IMG/VR virus record: IMGVR_UViG_3300009068_000028
Span: 27,680 to 91,679 of that record
DNA from: a virus
DNA length: 64,000 nt
Strand: one strand, 5' to 3'
Part shown: piece by piece, positions 19,672 to 55,978 of the stretch
Layout: every line of letters begins with the position of its first letter
How positions within the stretch are numbered: the stretch's first letter is position 1
Program-made: the position numbers and the translations under genes
Notes under the pieces: model-generated
Database searches by the model: none
The model's input: only the letters and a program-made list of their open reading frames with translations
Told to the model about the DNA's origin: nothing

Positions 19672-20631
<960 letters not shown>

Positions 20632-36075: not shown

Positions 36076-37729
36076 ATGAGAAAAATATTCATACCCACAC
36101 CTAGTAACCTTAAGCGTAGAGACGAGCTAATGATGAAGCGTGGTGCTCAAAGAATGAAGAGCCGCCTTGTAGACCTTGTAGAAAGCCGTATGGAAAACGG
36201 TATCTTTGAGGCTCAGGCTGCTTATGACCAGGGTCATCCAGACACTGGAGCGTACCTTAGTGGTGCTGTTGCTGCTTGTACTGCAATTATTGGTTCTATC
36301 AGAAAGAGTGAATTCTAATGACAAACTATAAGGAAATACCTATGAGTGAATTTGAAAATCGAGATCGTGAAATTGTTAATGCTGTCATTCACGAAGGAGA
36401 AATGCGACAGGGAGAAAAGGTTGTATCACTTCTTGAACGTAAGATTACAGAAGCATATGCTAACAACAACAAAGAGTTAGTCGGCTTCCTTGAAGATCTT
36501 ATCATAGAAATTGAGGGTATTTAATGGCTAAGACAATTGTACACTTTGGTTCCCCAGAAGGAACTACCTATGGAGAGGCTAAAAAGATTATCATTGTGAA
36601 GAAAACAGGTAGCTTGAATGATTAAACTTAAGCACTATGAAACAAAAGAAGTAGTAGAGGTAGACCCAGTTGGTATTGCCAATGGCTGGATGCTTTGCAT
36701 GGGTGGCTACACCTACGACATGAGATACTGGAGCCAGGTTTAGTGGATCGTAAAGAACGCAGGGATAATAAAAAAATGCTTGACATTGTTGTTCGTAAAG
36801 CAAAACAAGATATGGCAGAATGGATTTTAAAGATTGATCGTATGCCAAGTAAGTCAGAGATACTTGCATTTCAGGCAGGGTACATTTCTGGAATGAACCG
36901 TGGTGCTAACGATGAGAATTAATGATTCAGGTAAGTAGTCACTTAAGAAATATTTAGGAGAGAAACACAATGACAGAATTTATTGATGGATTTAAGAACG
37001 GCATATTGGCAGAGCGTGAAAGAGTTGTTGAGCTACTCACAAAACTGCGTGACTCTGAATACGCTGAGGTAATGACACACGACGATGTAATTAGCATTAT
37101 CATGGAAGACAAAAAATGATTAAGTTTGAACACAATATGCTTGTGCTTAACAATTTCTTTTCTGAAGAAGACGTTGACCAGATTGATGCCTACGCAGACT
37201 ATGTTCGTAAACAAGAGCGTGAACGAATTATTGCACTAATTCAATCTAGGGATGAATGGCATTATGAGTTCTCAGATGTCGCTGATGTTATTGCACTTAT
37301 TAAGGGAGAAAGTTAATGATTCAATTTATTGTAGGCTTGGTACTTGGCTTTATGGCAGGACTCACCATAGTTACTTGGTGGTTTGCAGACGCTGCTAAAG
37401 ACAAATAAAGTTCTCGGCGGAAAAATTCGGCGGCAAAGAGGACCCACGCTTGACAAACAAGCGAACATTTGATATAATAGATGTAACACAACAAAGGAGA
37501 TACATTGACAATTAAGAAAACATACGATGCATTCGATGCACGTGGATGGAAGACAAACGGAACACAGGATCGAATGATTACGCTTTATGTGCAAGGACAG
37601 CACGGAAACGTACAGCACGATCTCTCATTGTCTGAAGTTATCGAACTACAGGAACTCTTGGCACGAGCTGTTGCTCAGTCTGCCGAAGAACCTAAGAACC
37701 CTAGCTCGTGGGATGCGATGCCATTTTAA
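36076..37729 (+). CDS. Run of small hypothetical proteins (e.g. 36076-36318, 36318-36524, 37116-37316, 37505-37729)
   Basis: Short ORFs with RBS and sigma70 promoters at about 36041 and 37450. Confidence 0.5.
37450..37478 (+). promoter_or_regulatory. Consensus sigma70 promoter
   Basis: TTGACA-17-TATAAT. Confidence 0.85.
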
Positions 37730-37833
37730 TTCGGAGGTAGACGCAATAAGTGGGGGTGGGTAAAACTGCCCCCATTACCTCCGTTTAAAAAAGCTACTAT
37801 AGTGTTAGTAGCCAAACAAGAGAAAGAAGCACA

Positions 37834-38589
37834 ATGAATAAATACAAAATTGCTACATTAGTGGGAGTCGCATCTGTTGCACTTACCGCTACTACAGCAC
37901 TTGCATGGAGCCACGATCTTTCGATTCGTGCTCCTTATACACATGCTGCTGGTGCAGCAACTGCCACTATTGTTGGAGCAAAGCCCAACTGTGATGTGCA
38001 GTCTAAGTTGTTTGATGAAACAGCAACTGCTGATAACGAAGCAGTAGCTGCTCCTGACGACAAGGCTGTTAAGACTCGTGTTGCTAACGCAATTACGAAG
38101 TTCCCTGGAGTTGAAACCGCAAGGGTTTCGTTTACTCCTTCACTCGCTGGTTTCTACCAGATCGAGAGTGCCATCGTAGAAGTTGGTGTTAACTGCAAGA
38201 AGCTTATTGGTGATGTAACTGCAACCAAGGATATTCTTGTCGGAGACAATGTCTACATTGATACTTTTACATGGGATGAATCAGCAGAAGTACACGCTGG
38301 TCAGAACGACTATGATGTTCAGTTTGTTGGTGACGTTCGTACCAATGCTACATCAGACCGTCTTCGTGCAGGTGTAACTGTTCAGCTCTGGGTTCCTAAC
38401 CTTGCTGGAACCAAGATGGTTCTTGTTGACAGTGACACCACTGATGCTGATGGAGAGTTTGAAATCGAATACCGTTGGGATGCAGATCGTCACGGTACTG
38501 AAGACTTCCAACTTCGTGTAGCTCGTACTGCTAAGTTCTTCCAGGACTACAGCAGTGACGTTGCCGATGGTGAAGTAGACGTTCTCTAA
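37834..38589 (+). CDS. Secreted beta-rich protein
   Basis: Signal peptide ending 'ALA-WS'; flanked by hairpins. Confidence 0.65.
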   Translation: MNKYKIATLVGVASVALTATTALAWSHDLSIRAPYTHAAGAATATIVGAKPNCDVQSKLFDETATADNEAVAAPDDKAVKTRVANAITKFPGVETARVSFTPSLAGFYQIESAIVEVGVNCKKLIGDVTATKDILVGDNVYIDTFTWDESAEVHAGQNDYDVQFVGDVRTNATSDRLRAGVTVQLWVPNLAGTKMVLVDSDTTDADGEFEIEYRWDADRHGTEDFQLRVARTAKFFQDYSSDVADGEVDVL

Positions 38590-39272: not shown

Positions 39273-39342
39273 GCCTATAGACCTGTTTGACATCAGAGGA
39301 TACAGCTCGATACAGCCCATTTTAGAGCTTCTCAGAGCATAG

Positions 39343-39957
39343 TTATGCACAGTTTTATCCACAAAGATCTTACTGATATGGATATTATCTGACTGAAAGA
39401 AGATGTTTGAAAAGTTGTTTGATGTACTGAACTATATATAGTATGGATCGTAATGTCCAAACACTATATCTTGTGTCCCCAAACACCCAAATCCAGCCTT
39501 GTACCACATCTACCCCCATTTGTCAACCCCTATATGTAGTATATTTATGCCCAAAAAACCCTATATATTGTGTATAAATATATCAAAACATCCTATTTTA
39601 TATCAAAAATATCCACAAATCTGGGAAAAATAATCAAGGGTTCGTAATGTCTTTGTTTATAGTTATATAGGGGGAAATGCTTATACTTAGCTGCCCCAAA
39701 TATCTATACCAAACCATCCTATTAGACATGTCCACATTTCGGGGGTATCAAATAGAAGATCGTAATACCTTTAGTATATATATTACCTATAGGAGAAACA
39801 CTGTATCGTCTGATACCCTCCAAACTTTCTGGGATTTTTTGAGATGCCTCGTAATGTCTGTAGAATTTGGGAAAAATGTTTAGGGGTTCGTAATACATGT
39901 TCGTAAAGGGATGTTTGTTAGTATGTTATGACATGGCTCGGGCAAAAGTTATCCACA
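39343..39957. promoter_or_regulatory. Non-coding control region with DnaA boxes, NrdR-like box pairs and iteron-like repeats
   Basis: TTATCCACA at 39355 and 39949; NrdR-like 16-mers at 39429, 39461, 39527, 39558; four GGG-N15/16-TCGTAAT units. Confidence 0.7.
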
Positions 39958-39958
39958 G

Positions 39959-39991
39959 AAAAATCCCCCACCTGTGAGTAGATGGGGGATT
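39959..39991 (-). terminator. Intrinsic terminator of the reverse-strand block
   Basis: aatccccca...tgggggatt hairpin with a T-tract on the minus strand. Confidence 0.65.
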
Positions 39992-40003
39992 AGACTATTA
40001 CTG

Positions 40004-43000
40004 TTAGACCGAAGACATCAAATCGTCTAAATGCTCGAAGCCTGTATCGTCAATGCCAAGACCAGCAAGCAATAAGTCGAATGTCTCGTTGATGAAATTA
40101 GTAGCAAGGTCAGTCGTGTCTACGATACCTTCGTTGATTGCGTAAGCAAGTGGCAAACCCAAATCGTTGTATTCGATAAAGTCTACAAACGCTGTGTCTG
40201 TTCGATAGTTGAGCCAAATGTCAGACAGAATAACTGTCTTGTTCTCAAAGGTAGTCGTAGTCATTGTGCTTGTTCTCTTTCTCATCTTTTAGTAAATCTG
40301 CCATTAGCAGAATACGGTTGATAGTTACATTGGGACTGATTTGGTGAATATACATTGCTACCGCTTCCAAATCCAGTCGTAGGTCTGAAACAAGATTGCC
40401 GATTGTTTTGGCAACTCGTTCATTGTCTGTTATTACTTTTCGCATTTCTCTCCTCAATCCATTATACCAAAAAAATGGTGGGAACGCAAGTCCGAAAGGA
40501 AATAAGAAACCTACGCCCCCACCAGTTTGTAGACGGAACCCCCATTCAACGTCTACCTATCTAGTACTACATTGTACTAGAATCTGATATAACTATAGAT
40601 GGGTCCTTACGAATGTGATCGATTTCGATACCCCTCAGAATTTTGGTAATGCGTCGTGTAGGACTCTGGAGCTGGTCTGCAAACACCCACCAGTCACTGC
40701 CGTATTCATCCATCGGAAACTGGTCTGCAATCCAGGCAGTCTCATAGAAGTCACACTCAATGAGCACACCTGTCTCATACTTGCGTGTACCGTTGTCGTC
40801 AGACTCATAGATGTATGGTTCGATAGTTAGTTTGTCAGACCACGTAGTGCCAGCCTCTTTACTCCAATCCTCACGGTAGAAGATGTTGAGGTCAATCGTT
40901 CTATAGCCTTGCATTAGTACCACTCCGTTCGATATCCAGTTCCAGCACAGTTGCCACACGTTTCATCTTCCTCGCCATTAGCAGAGGCACACTGCTCACA
41001 CTCTACATCTCGTGAGACAGGAACTTCATAGTCTTCGCCATCTGGGACAGGGATTGTACCAACATAGTAACCCAAACGATTGACAGCGTGGTAACCACTA
41101 CAGATACTAATATAGTCGTCTCCAGCCAAGTAAGTCCAAACAAGTCCGTCTGCATTGTGTCGTACATCTTCCCAATCCTGAATCATCTCATAGCCAAGAC
41201 CAAACTTCTCTTCGGCTTCTTCCATTGTTATAATCATTACTAATCCTTTCTTAGAAGTGGAAGTCCACAGGGACGAGGAACCAAAGAGTATCATTCTCGA
41301 TACGGTCTTTGTTCATATGAACAGGGTTAGTTGACCAGTTGGCAAGGTCGTAGAAGTAAGAGTTGAAATCCCAATCACCTTGAATCATACCAAGCATTCT
41401 GCCAATACCATAGAGTCGCATACTATAATCCATAGCACCGTCAAACTCGTCAAAGACACCGTCAAGATTGATGTTGCTACGATTCCATTCATCACGGTAG
41501 CGATTGAATTCCGACATTCGTGCTTCGACACAATCCTTCAGTATCAATTCGAATGCTTCACTATCTTTAGAAGAAACAATCATGTTGATTGCTCCGTCAG
41601 TGTAGGGGTCGTTGTCAGTGTTGAATCGTCCACCACCAGTTACAAACCAGTCGTACCAAGCACCACCACCATATTCGTCACCAAGAATGTCTTGGAGTCT
41701 TTCTCGAACTTGGTCAATTGCTTCTTCAGGGCTGTCTGCTTTTACTGCGATGTATTGTAGAACGTGCATGTGTTTCCTTTTCTTTAGGGGTAGTATCTAT
41801 TTTACAGCATGGAGCGGTATTTGTCAAGTATCACACTTCTCACAGTATACCCTTGACCACCGACACGAAATGATCCTCGCATAGATAGCCATAGTCCTCT
41901 ACGTCTCGTTTGGTAGCAGGTTCCTTACACCAAATCATTTCACACACATAGATATATGGTTGCATTATTCGTTATCCTGAATGTCAAAGTCCCACTGTGC
42001 GTGGTTCTTGTATGGTTCGAAGTCGTCTATAATCCATTCGTCCAATGCTTGATAGGCTGCATCTTCACTCTCTGCTTCAACAGGAACGAGGTACTCAATC
42101 TGCACGGTTGCTGTGATTAGATATTTACGCATACATCCTCTTATCGTTAGTTACGAATACATCTTCCGACCACGGCTTCTCGGTAATGAAATAGCCAAGA
42201 CGATTGAATTGGCGGTAGCCATTCCAAAGATTAGCATACCGTCCGTCACCATCTACCATAGTCCATACATAGCAAGGAAGAGTAGTGTCAGGGATATCCT
42301 CAAGTTCTAAAGCCAATGGGGTAGTTGGCAGATAGGTGTCTTCCCATTCGTCCCAAGTAATCATTACTTATCTCCAAAGTTATTGCTGTCATAAGGGTCA
42401 ATGAATGCTTCCCAGTCACCGTCAGGCATATCCTCGTGAACAAGAATTGCTTTCTCGATTGCTTCTTCTTCGCTGTTTGCTTGAATCCAGTAAGTCGCCT
42501 GGTATTCTACTTGATATACTTTCACATTACTCCTCGTCCATAAATTTGATAAACACTTCTACTAACTGTAATGCTATTATACCAGTGAGGTACGACATAG
42601 AACTCATACTCTTGAATTCCTGAATCTTATCTAGAATCTGTTGCTTGGCTTCTTCTCGTTCACTCATAGGGACACCTCACCGTATTGGTCATAGTTCTCG
42701 GCAAGGCTTTCGTCTTCCCAATCTGAATTGAGATGCCACTTGGTTGCTTCGTTATTGAAAAGATTGACAAGCATATTCTCAGCCTCGTCGTCAAAGTGAC
42801 CAGTATCCCAATCACTGAATCCAACTACAGCAAACTTGATTTGGGCAGGGTATTTGATATGGTCATAGATATAAACCATTACCTTAGTTGTCATCTTCGT
42901 CCTCCTCAATCTCTTCTACCTCAACCTCGTACACACCGTCATAGTTTAGATTGTCGTAGTGATAACCAATCTCCTCTGCCTTTGCCTGACTGTCTGCTTC

Positions 43001-43048
43001 AATCGTGCCAGTAAAGGTGACTAGGGTTTTTACATAATACTGAGCCAT
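40004..43048 (-). CDS. Cluster of about 11 small, mostly acidic hypothetical proteins (e.g. 40004-40264, 40245-40445, 40567-40914, 40914-41237, 41251-41769, 41965-42132, 42125-42364)
   Basis: Tightly packed minus-strand ORFs with aaagga/ggag RBS. Confidence 0.6.
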
Positions 43049-43256
43049 TGGGCTACCTTTCTTTTTGGGTTACCTCTATTATATCGTTGACCACCGACAT
43101 CAAACTGGGTAAATTCGGGAGAATTCGTAATGAGTTCGTAATGATTCGATAATTACTGTTTGTTTATTATGTCAGCAGCCCGAGCTGCCTGTGGATAAGT
43201 CTGTGGAGATCCCCCAAAGGGGGAGGCAGTTTATACTGTTGCCCAGCAGTTACGGA

Positions 43257-44279
43257 TTATACTCCCAGCATTACGGAAGCGACTACACGAGCCAAGCGGT
43301 TCTTCTCTGCGTTGAGAGCAGGGTCAAGTCCACTAGCACCAGCGAGAATGTTCTCGTTGTTTCCGCCACGAGCGGTGCGATACCAGTCAAGGCGTTCCGT
43401 CAAGGCGTTGAGAGTACCCCAAGCCGTTCCAGTAATTGTGTTGTTGTATTGCCCAACATAAATGTCGTTGATAAGGTCAATCTTGTCGTTGTGCTTCTTG
43501 AAAGAACCTTTGGCATCTTTTTCTGGGGCAGGGTAAGCAAGAGAAACAATCTTGTCAAACTCTGCTTTAGTAACTTCAGTTTCAATCATAGCGTTAGCCA
43601 TAACAGAAAACTCGTCAAGGTAAGTCTGTGCCAAGCCAAGTGCTTCACGAGCAACCTGAACACGACCCTCTGCCGTCTGCGTGTGACGGATTTTGAACGA
43701 CTGCTTTACCTTACGGTTAGAACCAATACCGCCACCCAAAGCAAGGTTGAGAGTGTTAGCACACACAACACGGACAGGCGTGATACTTGCCATAATGGAG
43801 ATAGAGCCATCGTGAGATGTGTTGATAAGCAGGTAGTTCTCTACCTTGTCAGCACGACCATTGGGGTCAAGCACAATGTCGTTGTCAAGAGCGAGAGAGC
43901 CAAAAACTACACGACCACCCTTGATTGAACCAGCAGTCTCCCAACGACCACCACCGTCAAGCAGGTTGTCACCAAAGGTGAACAGGTCTTCGTTTTGGAG
44001 AGTGTGGTAGCGTTCACCCACAACGCCAAGCACATCATTCTGTGACTTGTCGAATGGGTTGGTACGACAAACAAAATAGTTTGTCTTGTCAGATACATAA
44101 CCTTCTGGGAACGAGAGTTCCTCAAGACGAACATTCCAGTTGTCAAGGTGAGCCAACTTGAGCATTTCGTCTGTGGTAACTTCGTCTTCAAAGACAGTCC
44201 CAAGTTTGTGCCAAGCAGGTTCTCGCAATGAAGCAAAAGCCACTTCGCCGTTAGCACCGATTTCTAATTCGTGAGCCAA
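43257..44279 (-). CDS. DUF932 / phage-plasmid-like protein
   Basis: 'REPAWHKLG', 'WETAGSIKGG', 'NTSHDGS', 'TPVRVVCANTL', 'IRHT'; TTG start after RBS gaaagga. Confidence 0.88.
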   Translation of the reverse strand: MAHELEIGANGEVAFASLREPAWHKLGTVFEDEVTTDEMLKLAHLDNWNVRLEELSFPEGYVSDKTNYFVCRTNPFDKSQNDVLGVVGERYHTLQNEDLFTFGDNLLDGGGRWETAGSIKGGRVVFGSLALDNDIVLDPNGRADKVENYLLINTSHDGSISIMASITPVRVVCANTLNLALGGGIGSNRKVKQSFKIRHTQTAEGRVQVAREALGLAQTYLDEFSVMANAMIETEVTKAEFDKIVSLAYPAPEKDAKGSFKKHNDKIDLINDIYVGQYNNTITGTAWGTLNALTERLDWYRTARGGNNENILAGASGLDPALNAEKNRLARVVASVMLGV

Positions 44280-44587
44280 TGTATTTCCTTTCGTTGTTGT
44301 TGATAATCTAATTATACACCTGACCACGGACATCTAACTATTCTGGGGAACATTCTGGGAGGTTCGTAACCTAAACGTAATAACTATGTTAGGACATGGC
44401 GGCTCGGGGATCCCAGCTGACAAAACAAAAATCCCCTGCTACCAGCAATCTATCCAGACGCTTCGCAGGGGACTTATGTATGGAAGTTTATTTCAATTAG
44501 ACGGCTTCTCATTCCACCGTAGCCCTAGTCTAACCTAGACGGTTATCATCTACACACCGACAAACTCACCCCATATTTCAGGGGAAG

Positions 44588-44659
44588 CGACCTCATAGGG
44601 ACTCGAACCCTAACCTCTACCTCGACAGGGTAGCGTGATAACCTTTTCACTATGAAGCC
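44588..44659 (-). tRNA. tRNA-Asp(GTC)
   Basis: Acceptor ggcttca/tgaggtc, anticodon arm ctacc-ctGTCga-ggtag, T arm taggg-TTCGAGT-cccta. Confidence 0.85.
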
Positions 44660-44718
44660 AATGTTTCTCTGTGTAGTTATAGATTGGGCAGTTTAGACTG
44701 TTACCCAGCAGTTGCTCG

Positions 44719-45177
44719 TTAGAGGAGTTCCATCACCGTGTTGTAGGTGCTGGCATTGACTTCCTCTTGGTTGGTCATTTTGAGAACTTTGAGGTTCTTT
44801 TTGAGCAAGTCCAACTTGGTGGTGTATTCACGACCATAGTGCTGACGGTCATTAGGGTTGGTGGGCTGTTCTGGTGCTTGGGGCAGAGCAAGCAAGTCAG
44901 TATTGACCTGAATGTTTACGCCATAACCACCATAACGGTTTCCAGCACTAACACGAACAAGAGCGTTGGTGTCATACTCGCCACCAATGTTGTCAGGGTT
45001 CTTGATTGCCTCAACAACAGCATTGAGAACCAACTCTTGGTGTGCCTTGTATGCCTGACGGTATGCTTCCATATCGGCAGGGTATGTAGCCATCTCTGCC
45101 TCAATCTTGGCAATAGTAGCCTCAACATCAGCAATCAGAGTAGCGGTTGGGATTTTCACGGAGAGTGAACGAGCCAT
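44719..45177 (-). CDS. Hypothetical protein
   Basis: 152 aa, RBS gaaagga, own promoter. Confidence 0.7.
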   Translation of the reverse strand: MARSLSVKIPTATLIADVEATIAKIEAEMATYPADMEAYRQAYKAHQELVLNAVVEAIKNPDNIGGEYDTNALVRVSAGNRYGGYGVNIQVNTDLLALPQAPEQPTNPNDRQHYGREYTTKLDLLKKNLKVLKMTNQEEVNASTYNTVMELL

Positions 45178-45294
45178 TGGTTTAGTCCTTTCGTTTGGCT
45201 TATATCTATATTATATCATTGGGGTATGACATATAACTATTGAGTTAGGTGGGCAGTTTGACTTGATACCCAGCAAGCAGACTAGGGTCTGACC

Positions 45295-45447
45295 TTAGTT
45301 GCTGGAAACCGTAGTCCAGCGAGGCTGTCCTGCGACATCAAGACGAACACGGAACGAACCGTTTGCGTTCTTGACAACTTCCTGAACGATACCAGAAACG
45401 CCAGACTTCTGCGTGGTGAACGACTGACCGATTTCGATTTGCGACAT
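45295..45447 (-). CDS. Small SH3/Tudor-like protein
   Basis: 50 aa 'MSQIEIGQSFTTQKSGVSGIVQEV...', preceded by TTGACA-17-TATAAT (45503-45531). Confidence 0.55.
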   Translation of the reverse strand: MSQIEIGQSFTTQKSGVSGIVQEVVKNANGSFRVRLDVAGQPRWTTVSSN

Positions 45448-45788
45448 TGTGTACCTTGCTTCCTTGTAGTGAGCCAACTGTTTTGTTTGCTTCGTTATTA
45501 CCATTATACAGGAAAGGAAAGAGTTTGTCAAGTCTTTTTCTCAACTTTTTTATTTTTTTTGTGGGGACTTCCGACTTCGTTTCCCTGCCTGTAATACAAG
45601 TATACCAACGACCACCGACATATAACTAATCGTTTCGGGGGATTTTTGTAACAGTTCGTAACCTGTTTGTCATAACATAGGCGGCTCGGGGATCCGCAGG
45701 GCATAGAGAAAGGACAGTTTATAAAGGACATGTCCAGGTCCTCGTCCAGTGCAGGGGAAAGGACAAACAATACCCTGCAGCTGGGAGC

Positions 45789-46438
45789 CTAACTCTCTTC
45801 GATTTCTCCTACATCGAATGACTGGACACAGAAATCTTCTACGTCTGTGTTGTAGCAATCAAGGTTGAGTTCCCCAACTTCGAAATGTTCAATGTCAAAG
45901 TCAGCAGGGACTAACATTGTTGCTTCAACAGTCAACGGAATCGTGACGGTAATCTCACGAAGGAGCGAGATACCAAGTACGTCAGCAACAGAATTCGCTA
46001 CTGTCTGAACGTCAATGTCCTCAGCAATTGCTTCCAAGAGAATCAATCGGATGTTCTCGTTTTCCTCGTTACGACGGATAGACATACCAAGATTATCTTG
46101 ATTGAGACCTGTAGCCTGTGCTTCCAAGTCTTTGATGTACTCATTCATTTTGCTAAGTACTGGGTGATTGTTTTCCATTAGTTGTCCTCTGCTTCTTGTG
46201 CGATACCGTTGAGTTCGTCAATTGTCTGTGTGAGTACCTGAAAGTCCTCTTCCGACAAAAGTAGTTGTGACATTGCGTGTGCCATAAGTCCTGTGATTGT
46301 CTGCCCGAAAATGTTGAGAGCAATCCGACGGTCTTCATCGGTTTCTGCGAACAGTACCATACCAGACGCAGTCTGTGTCATTACATCCTGCGAAACATCT
46401 TCGGCAACCTGCCGTAGTCCAAATGCTATGTCAATCAT
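45789..46438 (-). CDS. Two acidic hypothetical proteins (45789-46178, 46178-46438)
   Basis: Coupled ORFs behind a repeat promoter. Confidence 0.65.
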
Positions 46439-46487
46439 TCTTTGTCCTCTCGTTGTTGTATTACCATTATACCGTTCACCACGGACA

Positions 46488-46916
46488 TCAAACTATGTCC
46501 ATTAGTTTGCCATTGACTAATACCTGTGGTCGTTCAGGGTAGTGGCGTACCCAACCATAGTCCTCAAAGGTGAAACGGATACCATACACCTCATAAATAA
46601 ATGAACGTGCCTGTCCAGAGATATCTATGAATTTGTCAAGGGTAGACAAATCGAAATTCGGAATGTCACCCTGTTCAGAGTAGTCACCAATAACAACTAC
46701 CCTGTCACCAGTCCAACGACCAATGAAGTCTGCCATTACCTCTGCCCAGAAATCTCCACCACCACGCATAGGTGAGCAAGTGGTGAGGACATACATCATA
46801 TCCGAAAGTGATGCCTCGTGACCTGTGTGTTCACGTTGCTTCGCACCCAGACCAATGTCGTGAGGGTGAATGACTTCTTGCTTGTCAAGGTTGTAAATGC
46901 TGTGGTATTGTCCCAT
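46488..46916 (-). CDS. Conserved phage hypothetical protein
   Basis: 'MGQYH..YNLDKQE', 'GRWTGDRVVVIGDY'. Confidence 0.7.
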   Translation of the reverse strand: MGQYHSIYNLDKQEVIHPHDIGLGAKQREHTGHEASLSDMMYVLTTCSPMRGGGDFWAEVMADFIGRWTGDRVVVIGDYSEQGDIPNFDLSTLDKFIDISGQARSFIYEVYGIRFTFEDYGWVRHYPERPQVLVNGKLMDIV

Positions 46917-47306
46917 TGTGTGTCCTTTTCTTTGTCTGTCTTATAAGTATACCCCAGACCACGGACATGAAACTCTGGGAATCTGGATAGTTAGTCGTAA
47001 TTCTTAATAACGTTTAGGTAACGAAGCGGCTCGGGATCCCCTACCTACCTCACATATTTCTTATCGAGAACATCATAGATATATGCGTTAGGATAAGTAA
47101 CCTTGACAGAAAGTAGGAATCGCATAGCAGCTTCTTCATTACGGAATGTAGCGAGTTTACTCTCTTTACCCTCGCCAGCCCACACCTGATATTTGAGTAC
47201 ATAGTCAGTCATTAGTAGTTCTCTCCGAATATATCAAGTATAGCGGATACCTGTTCATCTGTCAACCTGTCAACAACTTTCCAGTCGATTACGTTTTCCC
47301 AGTCCA

Positions 47307-47916
47307 TTAGCAATCACCCTCTACGTCCTCAAAGATAAATGCGTCAAGACGGTGTTGGTCAACAAAAGTACCTGCGTCAACATACGGACTGTCCTTGTAA
47401 GTGACTCCGTGTGGCAATTCGATTACTTCATCATAGTCCCCTGCCGATACTGCCACAACGGCGGCAACGGCAGACTGTACCATAAACTGCGGAATTGGGG
47501 GGTAGCAATTCGATGAAAAGTGAATACTGATAGCGTCCTCTAAAGAGAGGTGAGCGTCAGTAGCGAGAGAGTAAGCGGTTGAGTATCCCATTAGTGTCCT
47601 TTGTTCGATAGTCTAATTATACAGGGTAGGTCTGACATCAAACTAATGTGTAAGTCCAAATTTCTGTTTCGTTGGCACAGTCCCAGATAGCCTTTTGTAC
47701 GAATTGGATAGCCAATTTTCCAGCGGTATCCAAGTCAGCCACCCAAACACTACGGTCACAAAACACTTCATCAGTTTCAGGATTAGTCCACACTCCAACA
47801 TATTGTCCGTCAAGTGTATCGTCAAGGGTAGTTTCACCAATAGCCACCCAATAGCCAGTCTTGGCGTGAGAGAGAATGAAAGTGTCATTCAGTTTGAGGT
47901 AAGTACCGTCTTTCAT
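47307..47916 (-). CDS. Two hypothetical proteins (47307-47591, 47638-47916)
   Basis: Each has an RBS aagga and its own repeat promoter. Confidence 0.6.
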
Positions 47917-48043
47917 AGTGTGTCCTTTCGTTGTCATACTATCATTATACCAAGTACCACCGACATGAAACTCTGGGATTTCGGGAAACATATCGTAAGG
48001 TTAGTAATGAGTTTGTTATGACAAATGGGCTCGGGCGACCCTG

Positions 48044-48595
48044 CTAGATAGCAGAGCCTCTCACGACAATCCAAATCAGAGCCTGTGCGGTGCGAGGTGT
48101 CAAACCAAACTCACCAGCAACCTTGCGAACGGCGTTAGCGATAGCGTGATACTGTCCCTGCGTAGGGCTGTCCGTAGGCATTTCGGCTGCTCTCATCATC
48201 CATACATCGACAACCACAGCGTCAGTATCGCCAAAGATAGCACGAGCGAATGCGTTAGTTTTGAGACCTTTGAGACCGTCAATGCCTTCGTTCAGCACAT
48301 CATTAGCCATTTTAGTGTTGTTTTTGAGACCATTCACGTGGTATCCAAGCGAGAATGCGACTGCCTTAGTGATGTTGCTTGCCCAACGCTCACGTGGGGA
48401 GAATGCGGAGACAACGCCAGCACCAATCTCAAGCGAGGCATTGAGGTTATTGGCAACCTGCTGTGCGACTTCCTGTGCTTCGTGATACCAGACACTAGCC
48501 TGTTCGACCTGTCCAAGTGTCGCCTTGAGAATGAGGTTACGGAACAAATCCGTAGCAGTAGCGGTTACGATTTCGTTTGCGGTGAGAGTAGTCAT
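48044..48595 (-). CDS. HhH-GPD-like DNA glycosylase-fold protein
   Basis: 'WY', 'SP..RW..N', 'GLKTNAF', 'VVVDVW..RA', 'QALIW'. Confidence 0.55.
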   Translation of the reverse strand: MTTLTANEIVTATATDLFRNLILKATLGQVEQASVWYHEAQEVAQQVANNLNASLEIGAGVVSAFSPRERWASNITKAVAFSLGYHVNGLKNNTKMANDVLNEGIDGLKGLKTNAFARAIFGDTDAVVVDVWMMRAAEMPTDSPTQGQYHAIANAVRKVAGEFGLTPRTAQALIWIVVRGSAI

Positions 48596-48796
48596 TACTT
48601 TGTCCTTTACTTTGTTGATAGTTCTATTATACATCTGACCACCGACATATAACTAGGAAAAAATCCAGGGGAATCTTAAAGTGTTTCGTAACTAAATTGC
48701 CCGATCCAGATCAGCTCGGGACCTGTGGATAACTTTTAGTCGTTAAACCACGCCAGGAATATGATTAGTATCCCCAGCGTGGCAACGATTACAAAC

Positions 48797-51700
48797 TCAA
48801 TCATTCTCTACGCCATTCCAACAAGCAGAGATAAAACGGTCAGCAATAAATCGTTTGTTGTCCTGTGCCATCAGTCCAGCAAAATCGTGAATGAGAATAT
48901 CGAATGTCTGCTCATCTATTTTGAGAGCGTAGGTGTTCAGCAATTCTGAAACGGCTACATAGTCTTTGCGTGTCATCATTAGGATACACTCACCCAAGCC
49001 ATAGCGGTACGCAAAAGGTGGTTGTAGTCACCAGACATACTCTCTTTGAGATATTCGTCAATTTCCTCTTTGGAAACTTCTGCGTTACGGAGAGCCTTCT
49101 GAACAGCACCCATAATTGCGTAGGCGTTGCCGTCTTGCCCAATGAGTTCGACTTCGATTTCTGGATACTTTGTCATTAGTTTTCTTCCTTTTCGTTTGCT
49201 TTTTGTTCTGCCAATTCGAGCATACGGTTTCGTTCTTTTTCCGTGAGCATAGCCCAAGCGTATCCAAACGCATAGGCGTAAGCCATATCACTTTGTCCGT
49301 TGTTTGCCTTTTTGAGATTGGCGATTACTTCATTTGAGCGGTTGATGTTACTTGTCATTTCTTGTCCTTTGTTCGTATTACTATTATAACCTAGACCACC
49401 GACATCAAACTATTCGTTTTCACGAATGGCTTGTGTCTTGATTGCCTTGCGAGTACGCAAACGATTTGGTCGATTGTCGTGAGTGCCAGCCGCCGATGAA
49501 CGACGGATTTCACGCATAGCCTCAATATAGGGCTTGTTCTCAATACCTTTGTGAGTTGGGTTCTTTTTCTTCATAGTCTTATTATACATCAGACCACGGA
49601 CACCAAACTGGGATTTTTGGGGAAAACGCAATAATGTTCTTAATTACGCAAGAAATCTGCGTGGCTCGGGGATCCTGTGGATAACCTCTGGGGATAACTC
49701 CCCTAGCAGGGAGCGATATCCTCATTTGGCACAATAGCAACGGTATCCGTTCCAAGCACCAGAATGTGCGACCATTCATCGCTCTGGAAAATCAACTCGG
49801 CACGACGGATATCCTCGTGGTCAGTACCAATGTAGTTTACGAATGTCATTTTTTTGTCCTTTTCTTTGTTAGTCTAATTATACTGCCTAGCACCGACATA
49901 TTACTCTGCGTTGCTCCCATAAAACTGGACTCCGAATCCGCATACGGTACAGTCTGCCCAAATTATCTCAGAGTCACCAAGGCGTTTAGGCTGTTGGTCA
50001 AGGTCTTCAGTGAATAACGTTCCCCTGTCGCAGATATAGCATTCTGCCTCATAGGTTATGACTCGCTTGCTCACGCTACCTCCGACAATTCGTCTGCGGA
50101 TACAGAGACATTACCGATGATAACGCCTATCGCACCCATGTTCACTAATTCGTTTGCCACAAAGTATCGGCATTCGAACGGAACATTATAGGCGATAAAC
50201 TTACCGTCTCCGTAGTTTGCTGTAATCTTGACCATCTTCATATTTCTGTCCTTTTCTTTCTCTAAGTATAACATCAACCACCGACACATAACTAGCCAGC
50301 GAAGTCCCAAGGGGAGACATCAAACTCCCAAACGCTCCAAGTGTCAGGCAATTGCCTAGCACAGCCTTCACAGGCTGCCTGAGAGATATTTCCCTGAGTA
50401 ACTCCAACGGTGGCGAGGTTGTCGCAGAATTCACATTCCATATTTTTTGTCCTTTCCTTTCTCTAATTATAACACTGACCACGGACACCAAACTATCTGG
50501 ATTCAGGAAAATTATCCACAGCCACGTAATTGCCCTGTGGATAAGTCGGCTCGGGCTCCGCAAAAATCTTGCGTGGGGAGAGATTTATTTGCTCTTGCGA
50601 GGCTCACTCTCTCCCCTGCGAGATTAGACTACATAACGCTTGTGGATTTCCATAGCGTCACGAGCGATAAGCGTAGTCCAGCCTTTGGGAGACTCGTCGA
50701 TTGCGACAGCGTAGGCAACATAAGGCTCGTTAGCCTCAATGCCAAACTGCTTACGGTAAGGTGTGCCAACATAAATTGACTCCACCTGCTTGACTTCGCC
50801 AACATATTTGTTGTCGTGAGACTGAATTGTGTATCCGATTAGTTCTTTCATTTTTTTCCTTTTCTTTCTTGTATTACAATTATACTGCCGACCACCGACA
50901 TATAACTATGCCCAAATATCTAAGAGGTTTTGGTAAGTGACCATTCGTGCGTAGTGAAAGGTTTCCATAACCTTATCGCCTCGCTCAATTGCGTCTGCCA
51001 TATCCTTTTCGTTGTCAGCGATAAATCCAACAATCATAGCGGTTGGGAGAGTGATTTCGTTTTTCATAGTTTGTCCTTTGTTCATACCTTCATTATACAG
51101 TCGAGCACCGACATGAAACCCATCAATTCAGGGGAAACGCAACTATCTTCATAAAGACGCAATAAACTTGTGCCGCCCGAGCCCAGGGTATGTCAGGACA
51201 AAATCCTCCCTAGAACCAATCTTCTTCAGTAGTAGACACACCAAGAATTCCGCCTGGCAAATAGAATGGGCGAGCATCCTGGTGACAGAAGAGGCAACGC
51301 TGAAAGCCATCAGCATATTGGAAAATCTGGGAAGTCTTTTCCCAGCAGTTGTGACAGGTGTGGACAGGGCGAGAGAATTCATCAAATGTGTTCATACACA
51401 CATTATACCAAAGACCACGGACACGTAACTCTGTGGATTCAGGAAAAAGGATCTTAATTACGTAAAGAGTTTGCTTGATCCAAAATGCCCGAGCCAGCCT
51501 GTGGATAACTTTGGGGCTAGGTTTATTTGCTGTGGATAAGTACAGGCTCACCCTAGCCCCTGTGGATAACTATGCCTTGTTTTCTTTGCCACCGTTTTGG
51601 ATACGGACAAGCGTACGGTCTACGATTTTGGAAACCAAACGCTTGGGGCTACGGTAAATTTCACTAGCCTTTGGGTAGACAATGGTGTAGGAAGCCCAAC

Positions 51701-53032
51701 CGACAGCATAATCGGTACGAGCGATATCCTTTTCCACGTCTTCACGGAAAGCGAGAAATTCGCCAAGCGTATTGGCAACGTGGACAACGGTCTTACCGTC
51801 CCAACGGCGTACGAGGTGGAATTCGATTTCTGGAATGCTTTTCATTTTTGTCCTTTTCTTGTTTTTGTTTATATCTAAATTATACCAGCGACCACGGACA
51901 CGTTACTCGTGGTGGACGGTGACAGCGAGTGCTCCCATTTCGAACATAGTTTCGACTGTGACATCTACCATCCAAGGGTCTACTAAAACGCTTACGTTTT
52001 TTGGGTTGGTGGCGAAGATTGCTTTGATTTCCATTTTTCTGTCCTTTGCTTATATTCATATTTTACCACGGAGCACGGACACGTAACCCTAGAATCCAGG
52101 AAAATTCAGGGGAATTTCGTAACAATTCGTAACTTAGTTGCTAACAGCCTGTGGATAACTTGCTCGGGCTGCCTGTGGATAACTTTTTGGGGGTGTGGAT
52201 AAGTCGATCTGGCTACTGTTCCAAATAACAGGCTAGACAAATCTCATAGGCAATAAATCCTAGAGTGTCTTCATCAATTTTTCGTCCACAGTCATTACAC
52301 TTAGTCACAGTCTATCGCTTCATCAGTTGGCGAGTGAGTGAGAGTGCTTCCTCAAAATCGTGATTTGTGAACACATTACCCTGAGCCAATTTCACCAGAG
52401 CGTTTAGGCGTAGTGCTTTTTGCTTAGGTGTGAGAGCGTTGATGTTGATGTCCTCAACTTCGTTGATGTCAATTTCGATTTCTAATTCGTTCACTTGATT
52501 TTCCTTTTCTTGATTACTTACAGTATGACAGAGAGCACGGACATGAAACTACATGCCCAGAGTCTGGCGAGCAACCAGAGTGATTTCCTCATCTGAGAAT
52601 TCTGTTTGGGTAGCCAACAGAGCGTTGTAGTTTTGGGTATCACGGTAGACAGCGTTTCCGTAGTCAGAGAATACCGATGTGATGGCTGAAATCTTAGCCT
52701 GTACCAATTCTTCTTTTGTAGTCATATTTTCTATCCTTTTCTTTTTCTTTATATCCACATTCTAACATCGACCACGGACATGAAACTATCCAGATAGGCG
52801 AATATCTGCCTATTGTTACGTTTTGTTACCATTCTGTTATAAATCTGGGGAATCTATATATAGTACGTAAATGTCTATGCTGCCACTACATCTAGCCCGA
52901 GCCCTGTGGATAACTTGTACCCAACTACTCCCTACTGAAACGCAGGGAGATAGCCAACAGAGCCAGAGCAGTGGCACTCAGTCCAGATACCTTGGCAGTC
53001 TGAGCAGTGATACACATAGTCTTGATTTTTCA
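48797..53032 (-). CDS. Array of about 14 very small hypothetical proteins (e.g. 48979-49176, 49176-49358, 49410-49574, 50071-50241, 50624-50851, 51210-51395, 51570-51845, 52312-52494, 52549-52725)
   Basis: Most have their own repeat promoter and an aaagga RBS. Confidence 0.55.
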
Positions 53033-53373
53033 TTTTTGTCCTTATCTGAAACCGTGAGATTTATTTGCTCTGAGAGGCTCATACCCTTTGGGTCTTATTT
53101 GCTCTGAGAGGCTCACTCTCTGCGGTTTCTCTGTTTGTTTATATTATCAGTATAGCCGTGACCACCGACACCAAACTATCAAAAACAGGCTATTTGCAAT
53201 GTATTTGCGTGAAATCAGGGGAATGTTGCGTAAGGTCATAAAACACGCAAGATTATTGCGTTTGGCTCGGGCATTTTTGTTCATCTATTGTTTACCTAAA
53301 TAGGCACGGTATCAGTAGTTATATGTCTGTGCTCAATGTTAGTATGAATACATACAAAGAAAGAAGAAATCAA

Positions 53374-53523
53374 ATGGAAATTCAAATCATAACAGAAACA
53401 AAGGCAATCTATATGCCATTCGCTCCAGTAAACAAATTGTCTGCTGACGAATATAACGAAATGCGAAAAATGCTTGCTGAAGCAGAAGCATTAGGCGTTA
53501 TCCGTGATTGGTCAATCTACTAG
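53374..53523 (+). CDS. Small hypothetical protein, divergent from the array
   Basis: Preceded by a plus-strand copy of the repeat promoter; a second such unit spans about 53577-53693. Confidence 0.5.
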   Translation: MEIQIITETKAIYMPFAPVNKLSADEYNEMRKMLAEAEALGVIRDWSIY

Positions 53524-54314
53524 TTAGATGTCAGACCTATCTGCCATACTGATTACATACAAACAAAGGACAAAGAATGACTAACACACAACGTCTCCGT
53601 TACTTGGAACTCATCGCTATCGCTAAGAGTGATGTGATGACGGCTAGTGAGTTCGATGAACTGCTAGGTCTCCAGAAACTTATCAAGCGATAGGTGGCAC
53701 TAGTCACTAGTTATTAGGTGGCACTAGTGTGCTCACTAATTTAGTGTGCTATTTTATTTTAGATCATGTATCGTACATATTTAGAAAATATTCAGATTTT
53801 GTACAAATTGGAAAATATAAAAATTTTCAGATTTCTGTGCGAAGGTAACACTCTATGCAATCGCATTCAAGAATTTTTTCAGGGGTATTAGAATCCTTCA
53901 TCTAATTCATCCCTAAAGATAGCCTGATCAGAGTTAAATAACATTCCAATAATCAATAGACCTATTGCAATAGCTACAATTGGAGCACAAAGAATAATTA
54001 ACAGTATGTGTGAATCTGTCACGGTAGATCATTCTCTCCTAAATCATCTCTTGTAATAAGACCAAAGTTCAATAGACAAACGTTCACAATCTTTCTTGAT
54101 ACTTTAAACTCTTTTGAGATCTGACGAGATGTTTTCTCTAATTGTACAAAATGTTGATTGAGAAATTCTTTTGTTAAGTGTTTTGTTTCCATATGAACAG
54201 TATATCATAAGCTCTGAGAGGCTCTCTAAGGAGATAGAATTTATTTTGGTATTTGGATTCGAGATAGCTTATTTTTCGACGGTATACAGCAAGCAACGCT
54301 TGCCTGATGTGTAT

Positions 54315-54524
54315 TCACCATTTATGTATAGGACAATAAGCATGAGCTAACTTAGTCTTCATCCTCATAAAACATTTACATATTGTACACGTATGTGCAA
54401 ATGAATTATATAAAGGACATTCTCGGCATATGGCTAATCGTTCGGTTTGAAGTTCTTTGGTGGTACGAGGCTGTGCTGGGTTTAATAGGTCCCAGGGTCT
54501 AACAGGCTTTTGTTCGTCGGTCAT
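54315..54524 (-). CDS. Cys-rich small protein (DUF6171-like)
   Basis: 'RLAICRECP...CTICKCFM..KTKL...CPIHKW'. Confidence 0.65.
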   Translation of the reverse strand: MTDEQKPVRPWDLLNPAQPRTTKELQTERLAICRECPLYNSFAHTCTICKCFMRMKTKLAHAYCPIHKW

Positions 54525-54723
54525 ATATCTAGTATATCAACACATTCAGTGTGTCAACACATACTTCCCCATGTGAGATGTTTTTATATCCTTGTTTGGG
54601 GATAGGGTGTTTGGGGTACTCTATCCGCCGCCGAATTTTCCGCTTCGCTAAAAACACACTATATCTAGTTATTGTCGAAGAACTTTATATCAAGATGTAG
54701 TAAATTGTATATATAATATTGTT

Positions 54724-55017
54724 ATGGACCTTGCTTTGCTTCAAATGATATTTGGTATCTGTATCAGTGTTGCTACAGTTATTACTATTTCAGCAGCAGG
54801 AGTCAGATGGTTAGTCAGACACTACTTCGACGATATCAGAAAAGAACTTAAACCAAATAGTGGTAGTTCTATGAAAGATCAAATAACTAGACTTGAGGGA
54901 GATGTCTTAGACTTAAAAATTCAGAATCAGCAAGGTGAAAGATTTCACGAAAAGCTAGATGATAAAATTGATAAATTGACCGAACTTTTTGTTCAGTATG
55001 TTGCTAAAATTAAATAG
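54724..55017 (+). CDS. Single-TM coiled-coil protein
   Basis: TM helix followed by 'ELKPNSGSSMKD'. Confidence 0.65.
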   Translation: MDLALLQMIFGICISVATVITISAAGVRWLVRHYFDDIRKELKPNSGSSMKDQITRLEGDVLDLKIQNQQGERFHEKLDDKIDKLTELFVQYVAKIK

Positions 55018-55282
55018 CACGAATGTCCTTCGGACTTGACTTGTTTTCTTTAGGAAGACTATCTAGTAGGTTTGTAACTCTTGCCCCCCTACCCCCCATT
55101 TATATATAGTAGCAGCTGTCAAACACCTTGTCAACCCTTATGCCCAAATCTCTTATATTTATTGATGTAACATTTCGTAACAATTAAAAATTGTAGTATT
55201 TCATAAACTGTGCTATAATTTTTTTTACAGCACTTTGACTTAGAGTGTTTTTCTCTTTATGAGAAGGAGGAGGTATCTTAAA

Positions 55283-55978
55283 ATGAAAACAAATCCTAGA
55301 ATAAAGAGCTTTTTATTAAGTTCTATTGTTTTATTTATATTAGTTGGACTAAACGTAAGTTTTTCTCCAACTGCCAGTGCATCTGAACAAGGTGGCATTG
55401 AAATATCTAGGTCAGCAGTTAACACTGTTGAAATCCGAGAGACTATTGCTGCTGTTAAAGCAGAAAAGAAAATTGAATATATGCAGATATACGATCAGGT
55501 TGTTCAAGAAGAGGAAGAGCGAATTGCTAGTCCTAGTTCTAAACAATCTAAGTTTGTAAGATATGCATTAAAATTCCAAGGAACTCCATATTGGTATAGT
55601 GGATCAACTCCAGAGGCTTTTGATTGTAGTGGTTTTGTTGCTTATGTGATTAAGAAAGTTCTTGATAAAGATGTCCGTCATTCAGCAACATCACAAATGC
55701 AATTAGGTCCACGAGTTGATGATCCATTACCTGGAGATCTTGTGGGATTTGGTTATGGAAATGATTTTGGACATATTGGTATTTATGTCGGTAACGGAAA
55801 AGTTATTGACGCACTAAACCCAAATAGGGATACTGAAGTACGAGATTTATCCTGGCTAGAAGCAAATGTTGCTCCAGCAGTATTTGTAAGAATTATTGAA
55901 CCAAATAGAAATTTTAACCCACATAGAATTACACAAAAAATTATTGATGGTAAGATTGGATTCGATTTTACTCCATAG
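55283..55978 (+). CDS. NlpC/P60 peptidoglycan hydrolase
   Basis: 'GTPYWYSG...FDCSGFV', 'PGDLV', 'HIGIYVGNG'; signal peptide. Confidence 0.9.
   Translation: MKTNPRIKSFLLSSIVLFILVGLNVSFSPTASASEQGGIEISRSAVNTVEIRETIAAVKAEKKIEYMQIYDQVVQEEEERIASPSSKQSKFVRYALKFQGTPYWYSGSTPEAFDCSGFVAYVIKKVLDKDVRHSATSQMQLGPRVDDPLPGDLVGFGYGNDFGHIGIYVGNGKVIDALNPNRDTEVRDLSWLEANVAPAVFVRIIEPNRNFNPHRITQKIIDGKIGFDFTP

Follow-up and report, generated by a model that had tools for sequence, protein, structure and literature searches.

Candidate sites for the host regulators DnaA, NrdR, and PafBC in the early gene block of a probable freshwater actinobacterial phage

The 64,000 nucleotides of viral DNA analyzed here (the window) are bases 27680-91679 of the linear, 91,679 bp IMG/VR virus record IMGVR_UViG_3300009068_000028, which is rated 85% complete. 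The region of interest, an early gene block together with the control regions at its two ends (39273-54723), contains in its intergenic DNA three types of sites that match published motifs, namely perfect DnaA boxes, pairs of NrdR-type boxes, and promoters of the PafBC type. It is tentatively proposed that the main role of these sites is the cis-regulation of the phage early promoters by the DnaA, NrdR, and PafBC proteins of the host. A previous sequence-only reading of the window had reported 14 perfect intergenic DnaA boxes noticed only in this region, four correctly spaced NrdR-like pairs, dozens of tiny genes that share a family of promoters, and several phage-specific repeats. All of these were recovered, the genes as about 40 called genes and the promoters as 21 nearly identical copies, all on the minus strand, and the repeats as a heptamer CCCGAGC/GCTCGGG (14 copies, all in the region), TTACGAA direct repeats, and the motif TTCCCnGAAT.

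The window contains 14 copies of the perfect DnaA box, TTATCCACA, of which 3 are on the plus and 11 on the minus strand, and all lie within 39355-52913. In 100 dinucleotide-preserving shuffles there were on average 0.70 and at most 4 copies. The whole 91,679 bp record has the same 14 copies and no others. None of the 14 boxes is located in a called gene, and because about 62% of 39273-54723 is coding, the probability of such a distribution by chance is at most about 1e-6. Seven promoter cassettes harbor 12 of the 14 boxes, the other two flank the untranslated end of the block. Most of the cassette boxes abut the upstream side of the heptamer, either as single boxes or as triples with spacings of 20-24 or 30-31 bp. 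The second box of the triple at 51500-51569 is part of the loop that a long hairpin forms. In the triple at 52150-52202 a heptamer is situated between the second and the third box, and the same triple is present in the relatives L016, L018, and L019.

It is very likely that these boxes are bound by the host DnaA, which we infer from their sequence properties. A relaxed form of the DnaA box, TT(A/T)TNCACA, leaves position 5 free (quoted in bioRxiv 10.1101/866236). The degeneracy of the phage boxes was analyzed for the region together with seven close relatives, i.e., in 142.8 kb with 53 perfect boxes, which are partly orthologous and not all independent. One-mismatch variants were found in excess at position 5 (22 versus 5.7 expected, including TTATACACA and TTATGCACA), at position 1 (18 versus 3.8), and at position 7 (15 versus 3.9, including TTATCCCCA), and without excess at positions 3, 4, 8, and 9. 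The flanks of the phage boxes, with a G at -1 in 8 and a G at +1 in 12 of 14 cases, are like those of chromosomal boxes. Box pairs that are 12 bp apart, and thus have a 3 bp spacer, are common in actinobacterial genomes and are also found in the end region of the phage and in its relatives, e.g., as TTATCCACA-gag-TTATCCACA in the end region of L019. When species-representative genomes were scanned for AGTTATCCACAGG-N(1-30)-TTATCCACA, Actinomycetota made up 33 of 80 among the matches listed, as counted from the record titles, and a metagenome-assembled genome (MAG) of a lake Actinomycetota species has AGTTATCCACAGG-C-TTATCCACA between rnpA and dnaA. Actinobacterial genomes of 1.8-7.3 Mb contain 13-39 perfect boxes each, and the number of 14 in the phage equals that of a 1.8 Mb genome.

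Two observations on host genomes were made in passing. High-G+C Actinobacteria (L041, L051, L052, L054, L058) have a pair AGTTATCCACAGG-nn-TTATCCACA that is followed by GGGGAT-n-A-n-TTACAC. In three loci that were checked the pair lies near genes for a rhomboid protein, a sortase, and a glutamine amidotransferase, and a search for dnaA in these 8 kb loci was negative in every case; the element is a conserved DnaA-box pair outside of oriC. In addition, a perfect TTATCCACA is located about 60 bp upstream of nrdR in a lake Actinomycetota MAG (G001:C115:7073-7566), which hints at a linked control by DnaA and NrdR in such hosts.

The second type of site resembles operators of NrdR, which consist of two 16 bp boxes with a linker of 15-16 bp and the conserved positions C4, A6, A8, T9, T11, and G13 (PMC13584703). 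Four such pairs are present in the region (Table 1), and no fifth pair was found anywhere in the genome. The six core positions are kept in all 8 boxes, and the start-to-start distances of 32, 31, 32, and 32 bp correspond to linkers of 15-16 bp. The number of such pairs expected from 200 local shuffles is 0.005 on average and 1 at most. Single sites with all six core positions are found 19 times in the genome (about 10 expected), and 8 of these 19 form the four pairs. The mismatches to the full 16-mer consensus are 3/1, 4/1, 4/6, and 3/7 for the four pairs; two pairs are strong and the other two match in the conserved core only. A chance origin of two of the pairs was considered and rejected on account of the core-position test and of conservation in relatives. 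The two tandem pairs at 39429-39573 have orthologues in the seven close relatives L016, L017, L018, L019, L020, L021, and L025. The pair at 52851-52898 has orthologues in L018, L020, L022, and L023, the latter two of which lack DnaA boxes and are members of a clade with 0-1 such boxes. One defining feature of NrdR operators, the location in the promoter of a ribonucleotide reductase (RNR) or nrdR operon, is lacking for all four pairs, since none of them is near an nrd gene. Conversely, no NrdR-type pair was found near the phage nrdE/nrdF genes (17554-20631), which are about 20 kb away from the pairs.

The third type of site is the promoter itself. In Actinobacteria a RecA-independent DNA damage promoter, RecA-NDp, has been described with the sequence tTGTCRgtg-8nt-TannnT (PMC5656591), and this motif equals the PafBC binding motif (PMC6789036). 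Chromatin immunoprecipitation (ChIP) yielded the PafBC motif tGTCgg(N10)tA(N3)T; PafBC reads a -26 element in place of the -35 contact, and throughout the Actinobacteria the GTC triplet of this element hardly varies (PMC8635444). The signal that switches on PafBC is single-stranded DNA (PMC11804915). All 21 phage promoters fit this motif, i.e., they have the GTC triplet and the -10 element and lack a -35 element, while 9 of the 21 have a C instead of the consensus G or A. PafBC thus probably drives the 21 promoters, and the combination of a -10 and a -26 element without a -35 element suggests that it would do so by adapting the host RNA polymerase. The region shows no enrichment of canonical sigma-70 promoters (31 versus 33.5 expected). 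Promoters of the type TGTC-N12-TAnnnT are enriched on the early-gene strand in every relative examined, including distant clades. NootNoot, a cultured phage of Streptomyces, has 7 of them on the minus strand of its terminal repeat (1.3 expected for both strands), and there (L014 1328-9252) a related form, TGTCC-N11-TAGACT, precedes small genes. Therefore, the whole phage family may use the host PafBC for early transcription. In a literature search no link between PafBC and phage promoters was found. Three near-perfect canonical promoters (TTGACA-17-TATAAT type) were also observed on the minus strand, at 45503-45531, 47237-47265, and 41799-41827, which may represent a second temporal class.

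The sites are organized in recurring cassettes. The 21 promoters comprise 8 that lie immediately next to the gene before them and 13 with a long upstream cassette, in which a hairpin (terminator) is followed by one or more optional DnaA boxes, the GC-rich heptamer, an operator slot, TTCCCnGAAT, and the promoter. The operator slot usually contains TTACGAA-N4-TTACGAA. In two cassettes these repeats have been replaced, by an inverted pair of DnaA boxes (promoter 50487) and by an NrdR-type pair (promoter 52780), respectively. TTACGA(A) repeats followed by TCCCnGA(A/T)T are present in the cassettes, in the untranslated end (39448-39901), and in the untranslated end of NootNoot (L014 1-900), and they resemble an operator to which a conserved phage protein would bind. 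An actinobacterial LexA box was considered for the TTACGAA repeats and rejected, as these are direct repeats and their second half does not fit the LexA consensus. A minus-strand hairpin with the conserved loop GAGCCTCnCAGAGCAAATAA recurs at 50560-50600, 51510-51560, 53040-53130, and 54200-54230, and in one copy a DnaA box lies in the loop and replaces part of the motif.

The heptamer occurs once per long cassette, in nine of them 68-76 nt upstream of TGTC. Its sequence is CCCGAGC in the window and in L017 and L018, a GCGC-containing word in L016, L019, L020, L021, and L025, and GGGGCCCC (a GGCC word) in L022-L024. The DnaA box is unchanged wherever it is present, while the adjacent heptamer differs between close relatives, as expected if a conserved host protein reads the box. 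GCGC, for which the base composition predicts about 147 copies, is absent from the 91.7 kb genome, and so are GGCC, CTCGAG, CCCGGG, and GGGCCC. CCCGAG/CTCGGG occurs 14 times genome-wide (about 17 expected), and each copy is a cassette heptamer. In the loci of the relatives the two heptamer words other than their own are likewise absent. The cassette thus holds one restriction-type word that is lacking in the remaining DNA and is swapped between relatives, and a nickase, endonuclease, or methylase of the phage might act on this word. Two other functions of the heptamer were rejected. A consistent partner for CCCGAGC as a hairpin stem is absent. An origin-type architecture of box, GC cluster, and DnaA-trios is not supported, because no trinucleotide periodicity after the heptamer was visible by eye and the GC element is also present in L022-L024.

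Conservation was analyzed in relatives that had to be located by protein and motif searches only, while a Megablast search of the region against phage records had zero matches. Close relatives, with DUF932 proteins that are 91-98% identical, have 2-11 perfect boxes in the approximately 12-21 kb examined. The cassette upstream of gene 42884-43048 has a box in all five close relatives that contain the orthologous gene (four perfect boxes and one with one mismatch). Counted by orthologous cassette, one always has a box, four never have one, and two are variable. In a distant clade (L010/L012/L013), which has a G+C content of 37% and shared proteins that are only 33-48% identical, the order of terminator, GCTCGGG, DnaA boxes, about 80 nt, and TGTCAGAC promoter is kept, with the boxes in the opposite orientation. 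Thus, conservation of the boxes, on which the sequence-only reading had made its interpretation depend, is found in the close relatives and in this distant clade. It does not extend to the clade L022-L024 (DUF932 74% identical), which has 0-1 boxes, or to the first 16 kb, i.e., the terminal-repeat region, of the cultured Streptomyces phages NootNoot and BillNye, which have none.

The genes of the block (Table 1) were called by simple codon usage, on which the coding fraction given above is based, and several further short open reading frames lie in the gaps. Pfam and PHROG scans of 39 early proteins yielded DUF932, DUF7178, and otherwise weak matches, one of them to a DNA-binding PHROG, so nearly all proteins are without a known family. 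The non-coding stretch at the downstream end contains the 3 bp-spaced DnaA-box pair, two NrdR-type pairs, the ATTACGA repeats, a heptamer, a DnaA box, and a terminator, and this layout is also present in the relatives L016, L018, L019, L021, and L025. It is probably the equivalent of the untranslated terminal-repeat end of BE-cluster phages. Coruscant, a member of this cluster, has direct terminal repeats of 12 kb, a G+C content of 48%, and a whiB gene (PMC7650747). The DUF932 protein encoded in the block shares 55% identity with gp2/gp3 of Streptomyces BE phages, and their homologue lies within the first approximately 2.4 kb and is found in two places per record, i.e., in the direct terminal repeat. 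The layout of NootNoot (L014) agrees, with 888 bp of untranslated DNA with TTACGA repeats and then about 20 small leftward genes. These two parallels suggest that the block is the counterpart of the roughly 10-12 kb terminal repeat of the Streptomyces BE-cluster phages (Stanwilliamsviridae), and that a physical repeat would have been collapsed in the assembly. The depth of public contigs over the block is about 2-3 times that of one flank in run X3, in which the left flank is inconsistent, somewhat higher in X4, and flat across one boundary in X1. The contig of the relative L021 ends at the inner edge of the block. Contigs of a lake metatranscriptome (X13) match 37504-38437, 39944-40237, 44714-45584, 48906-49075, 53880-54177, and 55245-55632 with at least 99%, which documents presence in an RNA library and is not proof of transcription.

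Table 1. Features of the early region (window positions; a point marks features that are not assigned to one strand)
Feature	Position	Strand	Remarks
Non-coding stretch, 731 bp	39273-40003	.	between convergent gene ends, downstream end of block
Perfect DnaA box	39355-39363	+	partner TTATGCACA at 39343; pair TTATGCACA-gtt-TTATCCACA spans 39343-39363, 3 bp spacer
Two tandem NrdR-type pairs	39429-39573	.	39429-39444 + 39461-39476 and 39527-39542 + 39558-39573; 98 bp apart
Five ATTACGA repeats	39448, 39642, 39760, 39849, 39888	-	
14 GC-rich heptamers (CCCGAGC or GCTCGGG)	39936-53271	.	39936, 43179, 44402, 45684, 47029, 48029, 48714, 49664, 50549, 51176, 51488, 52162, 52896, 53265
Perfect DnaA box	39949-39957	+	beside heptamer 39936 and terminator 39962-39991
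Terminator of last leftward gene	39962-39991	-	
Leftward block	40004-54192	-	about 40 called tiny genes of 29-340 aa; codon-usage gene call
21 promoters of one family	41844-53170	-	22-mer TGTC[G/C]GTG-N8-TA(T/A/G)A(A/C)T, then AAAGGA-type ribosome site and start codon
Promoter 5' ends	41865, 43099, 44332, 45620, 46487, 46967, 47965, 48647, 49404, 49602, 49898, 50286, 50487, 50900, 51113, 51423, 51900, 52081, 52543, 52780, 53170		
Perfect DnaA box	43190-43198	-	99 nt upstream of promoter element 43099
DUF932 protein	43257-44333	-	in block; Pfam
tRNA-Asp gene	44587-44659	-	inside block, between two cassettes
DUF7178 protein	48044-48634	-	in block; Pfam
Perfect DnaA box	48724-48732	-	cassette of promoter 48647 (DUF7178 gene); in 3/6 relatives
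Perfect DnaA box	49676-49684	-	cassette of promoter 49602, preceded by variant TTATCCCCA; in 2/6 relatives
Inverted pair of perfect DnaA boxes	50512-50544	.	50512-50520 (+) and 50536-50544 (-), between heptamer and promoter 50487
Three perfect DnaA boxes	51500-51569	-	upstream of promoter 51423; 51500, 51531, 51561 (spacing 31 and 30 bp)
Three perfect DnaA boxes	52150-52202	-	52150, 52174, 52194 (spacing 24 and 20 bp), upstream of promoter 52081
NrdR-type pair	52851-52898	.	boxes 52851/52883, operator slot in cassette of promoter 52780
Perfect DnaA box	52905-52913	-	in the long cassette of promoter 52780, adjoins heptamer 52896 on its upstream side
Divergent control region	54193-54723		upstream end of block
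NrdR-type pair	54656-54703	.	boxes 54656/54688, just upstream of rightward gene 54724-55017, over likely promoter; orthologue in L021

Outside of the block the window encodes a DnaB-like helicase (3737-4957), a DnaG-like primase (5215-6159), a DnaE protein (6906-10184) with 56% identity to DnaE of Streptomyces BE-cluster phages, RecA (10739-11749), class Ib NrdE/NrdF (17554-20631), and WhiB (27319-27492). The phage thus has its own helicase, primase, and DnaE, as the sequence-only reading had stated. The window also has five tRNAs, and an Rfam scan yielded tRNAs and nothing else. Metagenome runs that contain DNA of the phage are nearly all from freshwater or lakes. On account of the encoded WhiB protein and of the lake metagenomes in which the phage DNA is found, the host is probably a freshwater actinobacterium, an assignment at the level of the phylum. 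The whole 91.7 kb record, which is 85% complete, was searched for a DnaA DNA-binding domain, an ATP-cone (NrdR), a WYL domain, and Lsr2, and none was found; with the first three lacking from the record, any such binder would have to be that of the host. Example actinobacterial genomes encode NrdR and tandem WYL proteins, in three of them with adjacent WYL genes.

The closest precedent are the DnaA boxes in the terminal repeat of phage T5. In T5-like phages, about 8 boxes arranged as 3 bp-spaced pairs occupy an untranslated part of the left terminal repeat, the first-step-transfer region. They were first seen in 1987, and it has been proposed that DnaA stops DNA injection there (Davison, bioRxiv 10.1101/866236). 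Both cases have in common that consensus and near-consensus boxes, which relatives also possess, lie in the early region of a large lytic phage, a terminal repeat in T5 and the probable counterpart of one here, and that the role of the boxes is unproven. They also share the 3 bp-spaced pairs and the variants TTATCCCCA, TTATCAACA, and TTATGCACA. However, the T5 boxes are located in one untranslated region, while in the phage studied here most are distributed over seven early-gene cassettes and only 2-3 are in the untranslated end, the host is probably actinobacterial, and the boxes are accompanied by NrdR-type and PafBC-type elements. Chromosomal clusters that titrate DnaA are datA of Escherichia coli, the DnaA-box clusters of Bacillus subtilis, and the D78 cluster of Streptomyces; datA needs IHF and promotes the hydrolysis of DnaA-ATP. 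Like the phage boxes they are dense groups of high-affinity boxes outside of oriC, but they are host loci that control the initiation of their own replication, whereas the phage boxes are tied to promoters. To our knowledge, no phage locus has been shown to act as a DnaA-titrating cluster.

The phage NrdR-type pairs agree with the operators of RNR operons in the six core positions, the 16 bp boxes, and the linker of 15-16 bp, but in contrast to these none of them adjoins an nrd gene (PMC13584703; PMC9110341). The nrdAB promoter of Listeria contains two NrdR-box pairs that are about 100 bp apart (PMC13584703; PMC9110341), and the two phage pairs at 39429-39573 have a similar distance of about 100 bp. 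The phage promoters share the 22 nt motif, the GTC triplet, a -10 element of the canonical type, and the lack of a -35 element with the PafBC/RecA-NDp promoters, the known members of which belong to host repair genes induced via single-stranded DNA, whereas here 21 copies are found at phage early genes (PMC5656591; PMC6789036; PMC8635444; PMC11804915). A literature search revealed neither NrdR boxes in phage genomes nor DnaA boxes in actinobacterial phages. In phages of the T4 type, small early genes are flanked by cassettes of a promoter plus a stem-loop, and phage SPO1 has its host-takeover module in the terminal redundancy. In both, as in this phage, many tiny early genes with their own strong promoter and stem-loop lie in a plastic terminal region, and the repeated regulatory cassettes could drive gene shuffling. 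We know of no report of host DnaA, NrdR, or PafBC sites in these cassettes. Phages also borrow single host regulators, e.g., LexA, or DnaA at the lambda pR promoter.

An action of the sites on the neighboring promoters is favored because of their fixed slots, the cassette-specific conservation, the swapping of slots, and the presence of a third host-regulator motif alongside. The sequence-only reading had named the sensing of the host state as its alternative, and this alternative fits the same slots, conservation pattern, and swaps. The block, with about 45 tiny genes, would then be the early host-takeover block of a lytic phage of freshwater Actinobacteria, transcribed early on by a host RNA polymerase adapted by PafBC. 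Host DnaA and NrdR would bind to the cassette sites and gate selected early transcription units. DnaA, as an activator, repressor, or roadblock, would convey the replication-initiation state of the cell, and NrdR would convey its ATP/dATP state, so that a part of the takeover programme would follow host replication and the deoxynucleotide (dNTP) supply. Sequestration of DnaA and NrdR by many phage copies would be an automatic by-product and not the main selected role. The three regulators have a common theme, since each of them is linked to DNA replication, dNTP supply, or DNA damage. A more elaborate version, which we regard as speculative, is a device with three inputs, in which the promoters fire only after single-stranded DNA has activated the host PafBC, DnaA and NrdR additionally control selected cassettes, all three regulators are drawn off the host chromosome by the same sites upon phage replication, and the heptamer is a fourth address that is read by a phage enzyme.

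Several observations weigh against the proposed cis-regulation. Most boxes are about 80-150 nt upstream of the -26 element, beyond the distance of classical activators or repressors. Perfect high-affinity boxes suit anchoring or titration better than graded sensing, because they are occupied whatever the nucleotide state of DnaA is. The identical orientation of 11 of the 14 boxes could stem from cassette duplication rather than from function, and no gene is apparent that the NrdR-type pairs at 39429-39573 might control. Within the phage family the boxes are dispensable, given that the clade L022-L024 and the first 16 kb of two cultured Streptomyces phages do without them. Furthermore, a phage-encoded binder could have escaped detection in the missing part of the record.

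A first rival is the interpretation that the sequence-only reading had preferred, namely that the sites chiefly sequester DnaA, thereby stopping host initiation, and NrdR, thereby de-repressing the host nrd genes, from DNA entry onward and more strongly upon replication, without an effect on the phage promoters. What stood of this interpretation is that the sites are non-random, that they resemble DnaA boxes and NrdR operators in each sequence criterion applied, that they are conserved in relatives, and that the host is very probably actinobacterial (WhiB). Sequestration is quantitatively plausible, because the 14 perfect boxes that the phage has within 13.5 kb match the total of a 1.8 Mb actinobacterial genome and compare with 13-39 in whole actinobacterial genomes. 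One phage genome would at least double the high-affinity sites of the cell and, should the block be a terminal repeat, would triple them. Every box has the perfect consensus, the best form for titration, and the triples within 53-70 bp resemble chromosomal DnaA-box clusters. The four NrdR-type pairs are probably more than a host chromosome would carry, two of them lack a gene to regulate while the phage nrdE/nrdF genes lack NrdR boxes, and the phage brings its own replication enzymes. A sink, however, needs no fixed position, yet the boxes are in defined slots and are conserved by cassette. Their number varies from 2 to 11 between relatives and drops to 0-1 in L022-L024 and to none in the first 16 kb of the two cultured phages, and a benefit of blocked host initiation for the phage has no support. 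The protein-free decoy as such is also without specific support, and it is considered unlikely as the main role, though it may well be a side effect or a second function.

The cis-regulation by host proteins also has to be compared with explanations in which DnaA handles the phage DNA or in which the sites belong to phage proteins. In analogy to the proposal for the left terminal repeat of T5, DnaA might tether the incoming DNA end to the membrane or make it pause there, or it might mark origins for the loading of the phage DnaB-like helicase. The 3 bp-spaced pairs in the untranslated end (39343-39363, and in L019) recall the T5 repeat, the 731 bp stretch with iteron-like ATTACGA repeats and boxes at both flanks is built like a plasmid origin, and helicase, primase, and DnaE are encoded by the phage. 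But most boxes are dispersed over seven promoter cassettes instead of being gathered at one AT-rich unwinding element, no DnaA-trio-like trinucleotide periodicity was visible by eye beside the boxes, and the T5 model is itself a proposal, all of which makes such a role rather improbable. Similarly doubtful, and if anything slightly more so, is the view that TTATCCACA(GG) and the CwAnATnTwG pairs are bound by small phage proteins and resemble DnaA and NrdR sites by coincidence or mimicry. Clearly phage-specific elements do occur in the cassettes (TTACGAA repeats, TTCCCnGAAT, and the heptamer), dozens of block proteins are unassigned, one of them with the weak match to a DNA-binding PHROG, and the record is only 85% complete. 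It would then be surprising that 14 copies match the DnaA box in 9 of 9 positions, with tolerance at position 5 and with flanks and pairings of the chromosomal type, that the NrdR-type pairs agree with both published criteria in 8 of 8 boxes, and that the heptamer changes between close relatives while the adjacent box stays constant. A small residual probability is assigned to mechanisms outside of those discussed here.

The combination of PafBC-type promoters, DnaA boxes in a number on the scale of a host genome, and NrdR operators away from nrd genes appears to be undescribed. If binding is true, this combination would be surprising to the specialist, although sites for host regulators in phage early promoters are already known as a kind. 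The cultured Streptomyces BE phages share the TGTC -26 promoters and lack DnaA boxes in the regions checked, and they therefore represent a natural control for the PafBC part. The phage would also be the first test case for the sequestration of DnaA or NrdR by a virus via its DNA only. Provided that the host proteins do bind, a lytic phage of slow-growing freshwater Actinobacteria would time its takeover by the replication, dNTP, and DNA damage state of its host.

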